Part shown: positions 34,237 through 46,470 of the stretch, piece by piece | Layout of the letters: each line of letters starts with the position of its first letter | Numbering within the stretch: position 1 is the stretch's first letter | Virus record (IMG/VR): IMGVR_UViG_3300022661_000085 | Location: 12,191 to 76,190 of that record | Length of the DNA: 64,000 nt | From: a virus | Taxonomy: Duplodnaviria > Heunggongvirae > Uroviricota > Caudoviricetes | Strand: one strand, 5' to 3' | Program-made: the position numbers and the translations under genes | Notes under the pieces: model-generated | Database searches by the model: none | Told to the model about the DNA's origin: nothing | Seen by the model: the letters and a program-made list of their open reading frames with translations, nothing else

Positions 34237-34296
34237 GTCTTCCCTTTGGGAAGGGCTTTGGGTTACACTCAAAGTGACAAGATGTGAGAAGGATTA
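34237..34296 (+). repeat. conserved two-hairpin intergenic element, copy A
   Basis: Reads CTTCCC-TTT-GGGAAG, then GCTTTGGGTTACACTCAAAG, then TGACAAGATGTGAGAAGG. Confidence 0.55.
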
Positions 34297-34542
34297 CTCA
34301 TCGGATCTACGATCCGGATGGCTGCATCGCCCGTTAAACGTCGCAATGCGCCATCTCCCAGCCAAAGTCGGCGACTTATCCTCCACTAAATACCTATAAA
34401 TTGGTAATTATCCACATCTTTTCAACTTAATTTTCCTGTTGAACTCGAAATAATTAACCTTATTTCGACATCCTCGGGACTCTTCGTCGGATGAGCTCAC
34501 TTCAGGTTTTATACATGGATTGTGGTACGGACATTATAAACC

Positions 34543-34566
34543 ATATTTAGAAACCTCATAAAACAA
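34543..34566 (-). promoter_or_regulatory. minus-oriented copy of the promoter motif (GTTTCTAAATATGG-TT-TATAAT), convergent with the 34052 promoter
   Basis: Reverse complement of 34540-34566. Confidence 0.35.
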
Positions 34567-34587
34567 TTATTTGATAAGGAGAAAGCT

Positions 34588-34863
34588 ATGAATGAGCATT
34601 ATCATTGCCCTCTTTGCTCTGTTCCTTACGCAACAAGAAAAGAAGCCACGAATTGCCTCTTGCAACATAGCGAAGGTGAAATTTTGAGGTATATTGCCTT
34701 CGAGATATTTGCCTCCAAACACTTTTCTAAAAACAAAGAGAAGCCCCAGCCCGTGGATTATACCATTTGGTCGCTCATAGAGCAACTGAATGAAAAGTTC
34801 GACTTCGCTGAGGTTGACAATGGGATGGTTTGGAACAAAAGTATCCGTGGTAAAAAGCTCTAA
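34588..34863 (+). CDS. small Zn-ribbon-like protein (91 aa)
   Basis: 'HYHCPLC...CLLQH' with an AAGGAGAAAGC RBS. Confidence 0.4.
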   Translation: MNEHYHCPLCSVPYATRKEATNCLLQHSEGEILRYIAFEIFASKHFSKNKEKPQPVDYTIWSLIEQLNEKFDFAEVDNGMVWNKSIRGKKL

Positions 34864-35500
34864 ACCAATTTCTTAATACGGTGCCACGAAGCCTCAATTA
34901 AATGCGGAGTATGTAGTTGAAGAAAGCACCCCCGTAATACTTTGGGGAGCCGAAGCAGCAGTGGTAAATGGAGTTAGATGAACAGCCGTTAAGAGTGATT
35001 TGAAGCGATACTGGGCGATACTCGCCCCGGGCGTAATTCGCTCGTTGAATGTTTACGGGTTACGCTTCCCCGAAATGCGTTCCCCCTTTCCCATCTCCCT
35101 TCTGGGAACGCTCCTTGAAGCCCGTCAATGACGACTCGGAAAGACGAGAGGATGACCAAGGCAAAGTTAGGTTGCATCTTACCTTGGAAAACAACCAGAA
35201 TGACGCGCTTCCCTAATGTTTAAGGCACATACAGCAATTTCTTATGAAATAAACAACATATTCTTACAATCTTGCGCCCCTTTACGGCAATCTCCGCAAT
35301 TGCCGCCGCGCAACCAGCGCCGTTTCCATTGGCGCCCTTATCTTCAACTTGTGCCTTGTATTTTCCCGAGATTACTTCCGTTCTTTCCAAGCGACACGGA
35401 CGGGGATCGCTTACAGCAATCTACATATAAAGAAATTTGAAAAGCTTATAATTTTTCAACCCTCCCACGAAAGTAATCTCTTATTCCCCGTCACCTTTAT

Positions 35501-35618
35501 AGGGGTGTAGCTCAGCGGTTAGAGCACGTATTGTTAGTCGAGTTATCGACTGCTACTGCAATTTTCTTTAGCACTGCATTCGCTCGTGGTCATAGGTTCA
35601 AATCCTATCACCCCTACC
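35501..35618 (+). tRNA. abnormally long tRNA-like gene (~118 nt) with an insertion of about 40-50 nt between the D-arm and T-arm
   Basis: The 5' AGGGGTG-TA-GCTCAGCGGTTAGAGC is a normal acceptor plus D-arm. The 3' TGGTC-ATAGGTTCAAATCCTAT-CACCCCT-A is a normal T-arm plus acceptor. The middle holds the hairpin AGTCGA-GTTA-TCGACT. Confidence 0.45.
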
Positions 35619-35623
35619 GTATC

Positions 35624-35743
35624 GAGAGTGTAGCTCAGTTGGATAGAGCACGTAATTAACGAGGTTTGTAAAAGCCTTATACTGCAAGGTTATTTTGAGC
35701 TGTTAACTCCGTGGTCGCAGGTTCGAGTCCTGCCACTCTCGCA
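35624..35743 (+). tRNA. abnormally long tRNA-like gene (~120 nt) with an internal insertion
   Basis: 5' GAGAGTG-TA-GCTCAGTTGGATAGAGC, then an insert flanked by GTTAAC, then TGGTC-GCAGGTTCGAGTCCTGC-CACTCTC. Confidence 0.45.
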
Positions 35744-35750
35744 TCGCTTT

Positions 35751-35835
35751 GGGCGAGTCGGATAGCGGCAATTCCGGCGGGCTGTAAACCCGTTGCCGTT
35801 CGGCTTCGCAGGTTCGAGTCCTGCCTCGCCCACCA
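35751..35835 (+). tRNA. tRNA-Tyr (anticodon GUA), long variable arm, CCA encoded
   Basis: GGGCGAG..anticodon loop CUGUAAA..GCAGGTTCGAGTCCTGC-CTCGCCC-A-CCA. Confidence 0.7.
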
Positions 35836-35841
35836 CTTTAT

Positions 35842-44345: not shown

Positions 44346-45079
44346 AAGGAATACATATTATGCAACCTAAATGTGATTATTGTGACTTTTTCGGCGAGAA
44401 GTACCATTGCAACAACTGCAAACTCTTTAACAGAACGAGAACTACTCGCCTTCCGCAGGAGATGGACTGCACTCTTGAAGAACTTGTAGCATACATAAAC
44501 GGAACAGAAGATGTTACCGAGCGCTTTATGGTAGGCGACTACAAAACTATCGAGTTATATACCGGCGAGGAAGTCAAGATGATTCTTCTTGACGTCGAAA
44601 AGGACACTCTCGCAAGCGGTGGAACCGCTAAGACGACATTCGGTATTCTCAAGATGGATGACCGATACAGAATGAACCCTACAAACACAAACCGCGGCGG
44701 ATTTGCGTCGAGCACTATGAATACAGTCACTCTTGAACGCATTTACAGACTACTCCCCGATATTCTCAAGCAGAACATCAAGCTTGTTAATAAGAAGTGT
44801 TCTATGGGAGAAAACAATCCCGACATTTTGACCAGCGTACACCAACTCTTCCTTTTCAGCGAGGTTGAGATTAAGGGCGAAGCACAACATTCCTTCGCAG
44901 GAGAAGGTGAACAGTATGAGTATTTTGCAAATACCCGCCATCTCCCTTTCGAGGATTATACGTGGTTGCGTTCCCCTTACCGTGGTGACGGTCGCTACTT
45001 CTGCTACGTGTATGGCGGTGGCTTCGATTACCGCTGCGCCAGCAATCGCTACGCTGTCGCCTTCGGCTTTTGTATCTAA
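44342..45079 (+). CDS. hypothetical protein (245 aa) with an N-terminal Cys cluster
   Basis: 'CDYCDFFGEKYHCNNC'. Its start overlaps the rnhA stop. Confidence 0.4.
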   Translation: MKGIHIMQPKCDYCDFFGEKYHCNNCKLFNRTRTTRLPQEMDCTLEELVAYINGTEDVTERFMVGDYKTIELYTGEEVKMILLDVEKDTLASGGTAKTTFGILKMDDRYRMNPTNTNRGGFASSTMNTVTLERIYRLLPDILKQNIKLVNKKCSMGENNPDILTSVHQLFLFSEVEIKGEAQHSFAGEGEQYEYFANTRHLPFEDYTWLRSPYRGDGRYFCYVYGGGFDYRCASNRYAVAFGFCI

Positions 45080-45130
45080 TCTTTAATAAACACAAATCCG
45101 CACCGTTTTGGTGCGGATGAAAGGACTCAT

Positions 45131-45352
45131 ATGCACAAGTATAAAATTGAGTTGGTTACCATAACCGACATTCAAAACTTTGTTAACGTGGTATCCTCTC
45201 TGCCCGGTAAGATTATGTTGACGGACGGTAGCGACTTCTGCGTTAATGCCAAGAGTTTGCTTGGGGCAATGGCGACGGTCGAATGGAGCGAACTGTACTG
45301 TGTTGCTTCTGAGCCGATCTACACAAGCATTCAGAAATTCTGCATTTCGTGA
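45131..45352 (+). CDS. small hypothetical protein (73 aa)
   Basis: ORF. It follows the hairpin AAATCCGCACCGTTTTGGTGCGGATG (45094-45120), which is likely a terminator. Confidence 0.3.
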   Translation: MHKYKIELVTITDIQNFVNVVSSLPGKIMLTDGSDFCVNAKSLLGAMATVEWSELYCVASEPIYTSIQKFCIS

Positions 45353-45359
45353 GGTAGTT

Positions 45360-45665
45360 ATGGAGCACAAAACATTTTACTTCCCAATCCGCGGTGAAAG
45401 ATACGTTCCCTCTATGCATCACGCATTGGCTGAAATATTAAATTGCATTCTCAATGCAAAGCCTATCAGAATATACACCACCAAGGAGTTCGCCGAAGAG
45501 GCTGGCAGAAATATGCTTTTCGATGATGACACCTTTGCAATCTTCGAGGTTGAATTGTCGGCGTGTGTTTCAATCTATGAAAGAGATTTCAGAAACAATG
45601 AAATCAAGCGACATCATTGTTTTGCCAAAGATAAAATCTGGCGTTACTTTGGAATCGTCAAATAA
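45360..45665 (+). CDS. hypothetical protein (101 aa)
   Basis: Start is 'MEHKTFYF', internal to the 45246 ORF. Confidence 0.35.
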   Translation: MEHKTFYFPIRGERYVPSMHHALAEILNCILNAKPIRIYTTKEFAEEAGRNMLFDDDTFAIFEVELSACVSIYERDFRNNEIKRHHCFAKDKIWRYFGIVK

Positions 45666-45700
45666 TTTAAATCAAATTCTACTTTGATGGAAGGAAAATT

Positions 45701-45904
45701 ATGAAAAAGTACATCAATTTGAGGACTTTTATGTCTCTCTTGTATCTTTTGACATTCATCTTCCTCGCGGTTTTGATGAATCACTTCCCGCAAGCTCTTT
45801 CTGCGGAGCCAACTATTCTCGGAGCAATTCTCTGCGGAACGAATATCGGCATGGCAACGGTGCTTTTCATCGATGCAATTCGATCATCCAAAGAAAAGAA
45901 GTGA
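45701..45904 (+). CDS. small membrane protein (67 aa)
   Basis: Two hydrophobic helices. Confidence 0.3.
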   Translation: MKKYINLRTFMSLLYLLTFIFLAVLMNHFPQALSAEPTILGAILCGTNIGMATVLFIDAIRSSKEKK

Positions 45905-45911
45905 CATCGAT

Positions 45912-46385
45912 ATGAAATATTTTTTGATTGCCGATACACACTTCGGTCACGAAAACATCATCCGATACTGCAACCGCCCATTCAGGACGGCTGAGGAAAT
46001 GAACAGAGTGCTTATCCAAAATTGGAATAGCACCGTATCCAAAAATGACACTGTGTTTGTTCTTGGTGATTTTGCTTTCGGCAAGGAGTTGATTAAGGAA
46101 ATCGCTCCGAAGTTGAACGGAAGGAAAATCTTAATCAAGGGCAACCACGATGACTATAGAAATGAATACTATCGCAACTGTGGTTTTGAGGAAGTAAGCG
46201 AATACCCAATCTTGTTTGGCTTCTATCTGTTAAGCCACGAGCCGTTACAGCTCAGCGAAACCACACCGTATTTCAATTACTATGGTCACGTCCACAACGA
46301 TACAAAGTATGTGGACAACCTAACAAGCCGATGCGTAAGCGTCGAAAGAATTGGCTATAAGCCATTCTGCTTTTACGAAACATAA
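45912..46385 (+). CDS. calcineurin-like metallophosphoesterase
   Basis: Start is 'MKYFLIADTHFGHENI' (the D-x-H motif), followed by 'VLGDFAFG' and 'KGNHDD'. Confidence 0.65.
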   Translation: MKYFLIADTHFGHENIIRYCNRPFRTAEEMNRVLIQNWNSTVSKNDTVFVLGDFAFGKELIKEIAPKLNGRKILIKGNHDDYRNEYYRNCGFEEVSEYPILFGFYLLSHEPLQLSETTPYFNYYGHVHNDTKYVDNLTSRCVSVERIGYKPFCFYET

Positions 46386-46404
46386 AAAAAGTTTAAATAG
46401 GTAT

Positions 46405-46470
46405 GTCGGATCCCCTTATACATAATCCGAGCTTTTGATTACATCAAAAGTGCCTCGATGTTGAAAGTGA
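46405..46470 (+). repeat. conserved two-hairpin intergenic element, copy D (longer stem, same TTACA loop)
   Basis: Reads TCGGAT-(13 nt)-ATCCGA, then GCTTTTGATTACATCAAAAG, then TGCCTCGATGTTGAAAGTG. Confidence 0.5.

Follow-up and report, generated by a model that had tools for sequence, protein, structure and literature searches.

Probable retron-like RNA units around a single reverse transcriptase gene in a large phage of a gut and rumen clade

The phage fragment considered here, positions 12,191 to 76,190 of the IMG/VR record IMGVR_UViG_3300022661_000085 (Caudoviricetes; 64,000 nucleotides (nt), hereafter the window), carries a reverse transcriptase (RT) gene on its plus strand, and four copies of a two-hairpin RNA motif (A to D) lie in the intergenic regions around it. 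A cassette of four genes, p128, p465, p339 and one for a ThiF-like protein, precedes the RT gene, and an RNase H gene follows it (Table 1). The initial annotation of this DNA had reported the four copies, all on the plus strand, and they are found where it placed them, with the core GCTTTKGRTTACAYYMAAAG at 34255, 41712, 43621 and 46431. A search with the degenerate core GCTTTKGRTTACAYTCAAAG, allowing at most 3 mismatches, matched at these positions only and gave 0 matches on the minus strand, against an expectation of 0.03 from dinucleotide shuffles. A family-level covariance model run with its filters off did not find a fifth copy in the 64 kb window.

The motif itself stood up as first described, but the span assigned to it is no more than the first third, at the 5′ end, of a unit that runs to 172-306 nt. 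Such a unit begins 15-16 nt upstream of that span with a short repeat and a G, and finishes 100-250 nt downstream of it with the complementary repeat, which again has a G before it. From 5′ to 3′ a unit comprises an inverted-repeat arm of 8-12 nt (a2; 6 nt in unit B), a G that does not vary, hairpin 1 with its variable sequence, hairpin 2 and its tail, both conserved, then 80-220 nt of variable sequence, a second G and the complementary arm (a1); all four window units carry both arms and both G residues. Overlooked at first were the pairing of a2 with the distant a1, the G residue at either flank and the tie to the adjacent retron-class RT. Alignment of the copies bears out the smaller features: hairpin 1 varies in sequence with its pairing kept, hairpin 2 shows compensatory changes (G-C to A-T at the inner pair; in copy D, G-C to T-A and G.T to G-C), and the tail after hairpin 2 is conserved and single-stranded (GTRMCWNNWTGWNRR). 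The loop had been described as an invariant TTACA, which is true of this phage and its closest relative only. Folding and the wider family instead give hairpin 2 a loop of 3 nt, closed by a U-A pair on a stem of 8-9 bp; the loop is UAC in this phage and GUA, GUC, GAU or UUU in other family members.

Table 1. Positions in the window of the four RNA units, their parts, and the genes and promoter beside them
Feature	Coordinates	Strand	Remark
Promoter, sigma-70 type	34052-34080	+	TTGACA-17-TATAAT, perfect; ~140 nt upstream of unit A
Unit A	34222-34527	+	306 nt
A, a2	34222-34231		TACTACAATC
A, putative branching G	34232		
A, hairpin 1	34238-34254		
A, hairpin 2	34255-34275		
A, tail	34276-34296		
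A, variable msd-like region	34297-34516		
A, opposing G	34517		
A, a1	34518-34527		GATTGTGGTA
p128	37857-38243	+	cassette upstream of RT
p465	38607-40004	+	cassette upstream of RT
p339	39982-41001	+	cassette upstream of RT
ThiF/E1-like adenylyltransferase	40989-41672	+	cassette upstream of RT
Unit B	41683-41872	+	190 nt; directly between ThiF-like and RT genes
B, a2	41683-41688		GATAAA
B, G	41689		
B, hairpin 1	41695-41711		
B, hairpin 2	41712-41732		
B, tail	41733-41753		
B, opposing G	41866		
B, a1	41867-41872		TTTATT
Retron-class reverse transcriptase	41996-43390	+	464 amino acids; Pfam RVT_1; between units B and C
Unit C	43590-43893	+	304 nt; between RT and RNase H genes
C, a2	43590-43598		ATTACAATC
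C, G	43599		
C, hairpin 1	43605-43620		
C, hairpin 2	43621-43641		
C, tail	43642-43662		
C, opposing G	43884		
C, a1	43885-43893		GATTGTAAT
RNase H	43908-44345	+	Pfam RNase_H, 1.6e-46; immediately after unit C
Unit D	46391-46562	+	172 nt
D, a2	46391-46399		GTTTAAATA
D, G	46400		
D, hairpin 1	46406-46430		
D, hairpin 2	46431-46451		
D, tail	46452-46470		
D, 10-bp msd hairpin	46481-46503		
D, opposing G	46553		
D, a1	46554-46562		TATTTAAAC

Relatives of the motif were sought in related phages, as the initial annotation had proposed, and a motif family was found there. The four-copy model recovered another four copies, which surround the RT gene of the closest IMG/VR relative; its RT is 55% identical. 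Iterated nhmmer searches of 22 related loci gave 53 matches, every one on the gene strand and 0 on the opposite strand. In all, 48 distinct units were collected from about 20 related gut and rumen phage contigs, all of them gene-strand and beside the RT, and related contigs from metagenome-assembled genomes (MAGs) hold further family members. Since the motif is kept in related phages, it is not the recently duplicated terminator that the initial annotation had held out as the alternative. The number of units per RT reaches four or more in relatives, and both copy number and position vary; one contig (L106) carries tandem arrays of three units with no gene between them. When IMG/VR was scanned separately for exact matches to the 15 specified bases of hairpin 2, 105 loci came back, nearly all of them single chance or coding matches, the real one being L105, which is the L106 contig.

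The units also keep company with the RT. Among IMG/VR loci, 18 of the 19 that bear the RT contain units (three of them as weak divergent matches only), against 0/3 related loci that lack it, a small sample with phylogenetic confounding. The order p128-p465-p339-ThiF-[unit]-RT-[units] is conserved and stands beside the RT in 17/19 RT-bearing loci. The exceptions are L109, which has the RT and units alone, and L116, where the cassette lies ~6 kb from the RT; p128 and p465 are absent from some RT-bearing loci.

We examined the closing stem with an unconstrained search for the best pairing between 50 nt upstream and 450 nt downstream of the 48 distinct units. Upstream of hairpin 1 lies a conserved box (CTGTAATG in most phages, TACAATCG in this one) whose complement occurs 200-330 nt downstream. 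The 5′ arm stops exactly before a G in 33/48 units, with repeats of 7-12 nt, and in 33/33 of these a G also immediately precedes a1 (binomial p ~1e-20). The a2 arms are very diverse between units (for example GACTGTAAT, TTTGTGTAAC, CCTTGCGAT, TTAGTTCAAA and TGTTACCGTAAT), a1 always compensates, and both bases change at 10/10 pairs of the stem. The tandem units of L106 provide a clean compensatory series: CCAATAAA/TTTATTGG, CTAATAAA/TTTATTAG and CTAACAAA/TTTGTTAG. Because this alignment was assembled from selected best duplexes, its paired percentage is partly circular, and the independent evidence is the pair of flanking G residues and the consistent position. The duplex score separates weakly from that of shuffled downstream sequence (15.5 vs 13.2 +/- 1.8); the decisive statistics are the position and the G/G flanks.

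Inverted repeats that flank each unit, together with a copy number and position that differ between related phages, might suggest non-autonomous mobile elements of the kind known as miniature inverted-repeat transposable elements, with a2 and a1 as the terminal repeats. However, ends bound by a transposase keep their sequence, whereas these arms vary with compensation; moreover, the units occur in a single orientation (53 vs 0), no target-site duplications were seen, and the unit interiors are mutually unrelated. We regard a mobile-element origin as scarcely credible.

Hairpin 2 was assessed on a plain MAFFT alignment of 43 distinct sequences. Pairing holds in 87.6% of its cells, and sliding the partner strand lowers this to 36-49%; both-sided changes occur at 7/9 pairs, and the covariation score was reached by 0/500 shuffles. 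In L117 the stem is wholly replaced (CAATTCAT/ATGAATTG) with the stem, a GUA loop and the tail retained. Hairpin 1 was found with free sequence in 21/26 units and is more stable than shuffles (p = 4e-7). G.U pairs occur in the stems, which fits a plus-strand RNA, and the functional structured RNA first proposed for the plus strand is backed by covariation. Where relatives share 93-95% identity overall, their units share 97-98%, and the stems of the 5′ part are invariant.

Unconstrained minimum free energy folds agree with this picture. Within the family set of 29 units, 24 show the closing stem, hairpin 1 and hairpin 2 together, the remainder being L107_10923, L108_9500, L109_1709, L111_8510 and L121_6413. 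In the window, the fold of unit A recovers the a2/a1 stem and both hairpins (z = -7.65), its arms being the best free duplex, and the folds of units C and D have z = -3.53 and z = -6.29. The hairpin in the variable region of unit D carries one compensatory change, U-A to C-G, in the relative L130.

Hairpins in intergenic positions are also what a terminator joined to a phage-specific promoter would produce, as in T4-type promoter-stem-loop cassettes; hairpin 1 or 2 would then terminate the upstream gene and the tail would act as promoter. The conserved ~35 nt could in principle be a recognition sequence, and hairpin 1 of unit A was listed as terminator-like in a scan. Against this, neither hairpin is followed by a U-tract, no acceptable -10 element exists at any spacing from TTACA, no promoter-like site was reported within the motif, and the phage has perfect sigma-70 consensus promoters elsewhere. 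Compensatory stem changes and pairing across 200-300 nt would moreover be unexpected for DNA recognition sites, and we consider such a cassette highly improbable. Specific promoter types were tried as well (sigma-70 from TTACA or TTGRNT, the T4 MotA box, sigma-54, Bacteroidota -33/-7 and the N4-type hairpin promoter), and the conserved positions fit none of them. The upstream box CTGTAATG/TACAATCG was ruled out as a -10 element, its complement lying downstream of every unit.

The RT domain spans residues 171-448 of the protein and includes YADD; the N-terminal domain (residues 1-170) had no family match even at E <= 1. The best PADLOC model is the retron RT_II-A (1.7e-44), and 25/25 of the models listed there are retron RT types. 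Among NCBIfam models the best is retron_St85_RT (4.6e-49). The 12 best sequence matches in the PDB are retron RTs (Ec83, Ec78, Ec67, Kva2 and Ec86, two being deposited merely as RNA-directed DNA polymerase); after them come one unnamed RNA-directed DNA polymerase and, last, a group II intron RT. By hidden Markov models and PDB sequence matches the enzyme thus belongs to the same RT clade as the bacterial retrons, such as Retron-Eco1/Ec86, Ec83, Ec78 and the St85 family.

Retrons are known as bacterial anti-phage systems with one RT and one template RNA, the msr-msd, besides an effector. To our knowledge, this RNA is a single non-coding RNA (ncRNA) per RT, contiguous with the RT gene and upstream of it. 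Retron RNAs have pairing terminal inverted repeats, two opposing G residues, one to three short hairpins in the msr and a copied msd (Mestre et al. 2020, PMC7736814). The window units share with them the a2/a1 closure, the G right after a2 and the G right before a1. Like Ec86, they have two short msr hairpins after the first G, the second with 8-9 bp and a 3-nt loop. As a control we folded the Ec86 msr-msd, which gave a2 and G, a hairpin, an 8-bp hairpin with a 3-nt loop, an msd hairpin, then G and a1, the layout of the window units. The control sequence occurs in 48 E. coli genomes at >=99% identity (100% among the three matches listed) and adjoins a gene annotated 'retron St85 family effector protein'. 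Moreover, unit B lies directly upstream of the RT gene in the same orientation, as a retron ncRNA does.

Given the a2/a1 pairing, the two flanking G residues and the adjacent retron-class RT, the motif is best read as an msr, the part that the RT recognises and from which synthesis is primed. From the observed architecture and covariation of the RNA, the class of the RT, its co-occurrence with the units and the synteny, we consider it likely that each motif copy is the msr of a retron-like msr-msd RNA, and that all four units are probably served by the single RT encoded between B and C. The units would be transcribed with the plus-strand operons, unit A probably from the promoter at 34052; units B and D start 10 and 5 nt beyond the stop codon upstream of them, and unit C ~200 nt beyond that of the RT gene. 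Once a2 pairs with a1, the two G residues, one after a2 and one before a1, would face each other. The RT would recognise hairpin 2 and the tail, whose sequence is phage-specific, and would use the 2′-OH of the 5′ G as primer to copy the variable msd region into single-stranded DNA (ssDNA); the RNase H encoded next door, or that of the host, would trim the template. In the RNA-DNA hybrid, the phage RNase H could accordingly digest away the template strand. A single RT would in this way yield several distinct RNA-DNA molecules resembling multicopy single-stranded DNA (msDNA). We infer the reverse transcription, the priming role of the G, the identity of the protein that binds hairpin 2 and the biological role of the units.

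Units of one phage resemble each other more closely in hairpin 2 (identity 0.71) than units of different phages do (0.48), which fits one cognate binding protein per phage. Identity of the msd region is 0.25 within and 0.26 between phages, the random level. No targets of the msd regions, whether antisense or of the template-repeat/variable-repeat kind seen in diversity-generating retroelements, were found elsewhere in the window; the shared msr alone matched. Long msd hairpins are clear in unit D, L115_12774, L123_15215 and L124_13534. In three units of relatives (L109 unit 1709, L110 unit 4252 and L123 unit 7705) the msd part is G-poor and A/C-rich, with runs of 11-15 A (e.g. CCCCCCAAAAAAAAAAAAAAAGG); if such a part is copied, the DNA made from it would be rich in T and G and include a poly-T tract. 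None of this is seen in the units of the window.

Several observations weigh against a retron-like reading, beyond the circularity of the a2/a1 alignment described above. Known retrons have one unit per RT, whereas here there are four, with unrelated msd parts, and three of the four precede genes other than the RT, only unit B being in the canonical position. Unit B also has the weakest closing stem of the four (6 bp including one G.U pair), and its fold recovers the stem and both hairpins, yet with an unremarkable z of only -0.88. Its orthologues in L106 have 8-bp closing stems with compensatory changes, and in L131 an A to G change in a1 retains a U.G pair. The msd of units A and C, and of many others, is branched or weakly structured and has no single long hairpin. 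No unit matched Rfam 15 (retron msr, ribozymes and leaders included) at the gathering threshold, nor at E <= 5 over 33900-47000. As for the enzyme, its score on retron_St85_RT is 167 bits, under the NCBIfam cut-off of 235 bits. In the alignment with the Ec83 RT, NAKIH (the NAXXH of region X) becomes ALKRH and the VTG of region Y becomes NLG; only the H of NAXXH and the G of VTG, the residues most conserved according to Mestre et al. (PMC7736814), are retained. Further departures from bacterial retrons are the 170-residue N-terminal domain of the RT, the greater length of the units (172-306 nt), the often branched msd, and the setting: bacterial retrons lie in a defence island or prophage hotspot, whereas this element belongs to a large phage rich in tRNA genes, and no lysogeny genes were seen in the window.

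The altered NAXXH and VTG and the extra N-terminal domain could be taken to mean that the RT uses the units as templates or guides in a different mode, such as the protein-primed or rolling-circle cDNA synthesis of DRT2 and DRT9, and the A/C-rich msd regions with poly-A runs in some relatives would suit this. The RT, however, scores far better on the retron model than on those of Drt2 and Drt3 (4.6e-49 vs 3e-11 and 1e-8), and the RNA shows the a2-G...G-a1 geometry of retrons. A non-retron mode therefore appears very unlikely to us.

Cis-regulation has to be weighed as well. The units are intergenic and co-oriented with the genes, mostly with a gene within 20-130 nt of a1. Such positions would suit structured RNAs that act in cis as leaders, antitermination sites similar to HK022 put, or stabilisers and processing sites at mRNA 5′ ends, bound by a phage protein other than the RT and not reverse transcribed. 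The put RNA of HK022 likewise has two adjacent hairpins, and a phage-specific hairpin 2 would suit any cognate RNA-binding protein. This explanation nevertheless leaves unaccounted for the a2/a1 stem with its two flanking G residues, which is the retron signature, the strict proximity to a retron-class RT, and the three-unit tandem arrays of L106 without an intervening gene; the variable interior of 80-220 nt is also unlike a conserved leader. We think it unlikely. Among the functions that the initial annotation had offered for the RNA, a protein-binding site is probably the closest, while a leader, a processing site or a ribozyme found no backing, with no match to a ribozyme or other family in Rfam. 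A hammerhead suggested by CTGATGAG...CGAAA at 34210-34236 was rejected, as its stem II cannot form and Rfam gave no match. None of the alternatives weighed here accounts for the G-flanked covarying closing stem and the RT association together.

The cassette upstream of the RT may be a candidate partner or effector module. The ThiF-like protein matches Cap2-type 'E1-E2' models of PADLOC and the 6A-MBL cap2_3 model of NCBIfam; for p465, p339 and p128 no family was found even at E <= 1. The neighbours of the RT (ThiF-like, p339, p465 and RNase H) include no effector type of Mestre et al. 2020, and the term 'ThiF' is absent from PMC7736814.

A comparable arrangement is found in jumbo phages of Staphylococcus aureus, where a retron-like RT with an N-terminal domain of ~200 residues (MarsHill gp206; PALS_2_015) is preceded by a 1.2 kb non-coding region hypothesised to hold an ncRNA (bioRxiv 10.1101/2020.12.14.422802). 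We find that this region of PALS_2 (L128, MN091626.1, positions 1576-2852; 1.28 kb) consists of five tandem repeats of ~200 nt, each with a conserved hairpin (C/G)AT(T/C)ATA-TGAATACG-TAT(A/G)AT(G/C) followed by a GC-rich hairpin. The RT is ~25% identical to that of the window, the hairpin differs in sequence from hairpin 2, and the family model R2 had no match there. These repeats probably form a comparable array of template RNAs that uses another recognition hairpin, which suggests that phage retron-like RTs in general come with arrays of several units. Our search of the literature for phage retrons with multiple ncRNAs found nothing beyond these jumbo phages, one possibly overlapping preprint (10.64898/2026.09.22.753630) being left unread. 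Engineered 'multitrons' are alike in combining one RT with several units that have a common msr and different msd templates (PMC10370050); these are synthetic, whereas the arrangement here is natural and conserved across a phage clade.

With respect to the source of the phage, megablast gave no match of the region to isolated phages. The region shares ~95% identity with the 106 kb contig JAFVSI010000063.1, from the bin of a Clostridia MAG of sheep colon, and 93% with a contig from the bin of a Eubacteriales MAG. Relatives 93-95% identical show a gene-content hot spot at window 45350-45690: in L130 a 1.8 kb insertion (9695-11486) falls exactly at window 45688/45691, and L131 has ~860 nt of other sequence (4628-5490) in place of 45350-45690.

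Structural genes occupy the minus strand at 1-28 kb of the window, and a protease-like protein is merely 25-33% identical to proteins of Bacillus, Lactococcus and Brevibacillus phages. The plus-strand block holds Ro60/TROVE-like, ThiF-like, RT and RNase H genes, phosphoesterases, a polynucleotide kinase, a nucleotidyltransferase, HNH, NAD-salvage enzymes, a Thg1-like protein and an RNA ligase. At 47000-62002 is a dense island of RNA-repair/counter-defence type with genes for polynucleotide kinase, nucleotidyltransferase, phosphoesterases, HNH, PRPP synthase, NAMPT, a phosphatase, NAD synthetase, a Thg1-like tRNA-His guanylyltransferase and RNA ligase. There are at least 16 tRNA genes in the window, 12 of them at 50000-52521. 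Genes for RNA repair, tRNAs, Ro60/Y-RNA and NAD salvage form an island around the retron-like element.

Perfect (12/12) sigma-70 promoters (TTGACA-17-TATAAT) are present at 28226-28254 (-), 32595-32623 (+) and 34052-34080 (+), and one of the three stands at the switch between the minus- and plus-strand gene blocks. Such promoters are compatible with a host from the Firmicutes whose polymerase carries out the early transcription. The promoter at 34052 is probably the source of the unit A transcript. The ~130-nt leader between it and the a2 of unit A contains a 9-bp long-range stem, GCTCATCAG/CTGATGAGC (34166-34174 with 34211-34219). A 13-mer, CAAATCCAAATGA, occurs just past this promoter (34089-34101) and within unit C (43805-43817), and TTTTCAAC occurs upstream of the promoter (34030-34037), in unit A (34417-34424) and in unit C (43787-43794); these recurrences may be chance or a shared protein-binding site.

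Downstream of unit A are three tRNA-like elements with insertions of ~45 nt (35501-35616, 35624-35741 and 35842-35968; 41-50 bits on the tRNA model), with a normal tRNA-Tyr (35751-35835) among them. A weak match to YrlA, a Y RNA-like family, spans 35564-35678 (31 bits, E = 0.0016). Just downstream of these elements is a Ro60/TROVE-vWA-like gene (36159-37676; DUF2828/DUF7788, phrog_850 'RNA-binding protein'), and the elements and gene together look like a phage Ro60 plus Y-RNA module.

In summary, what is probably new is a phage-borne retron-like system with several templates per RT, known retrons being bacterial with one enzyme and one RNA. Retron-like units would explain the long 'empty' intergenic regions around the RT genes of these phages, and probably also those of the S. 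aureus jumbo phages. More speculatively, a large gut/rumen phage clade might have remade a one-template bacterial defence retron into a multi-template ssDNA factory, in which one RT, with its new N-terminal domain and its link to the ThiF/E1-like cassette and RNase H, copies at least four dispersed or tandem templates of unrelated msd sequence during infection, for counter-defence or for excluding competing phages; this is possible but doubtful. Counter-defence could here mean, for instance, msDNAs that act as decoys, or ssDNA that acts as a sponge, directed at retrons or ssDNA-sensing systems of the host. If the retron-like reading is true, the two hairpins and the tail would make up a short, portable msr that tolerates 80-220 nt of unrelated template, and would offer a natural precedent and new parts for multiplexed retron editing. 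The system would represent a natural, conserved phage arrangement in which one retron-class RT serves several different templates. Viruses, too, would then use retrons, and the role of several distinct msDNAs in infection would become a question.

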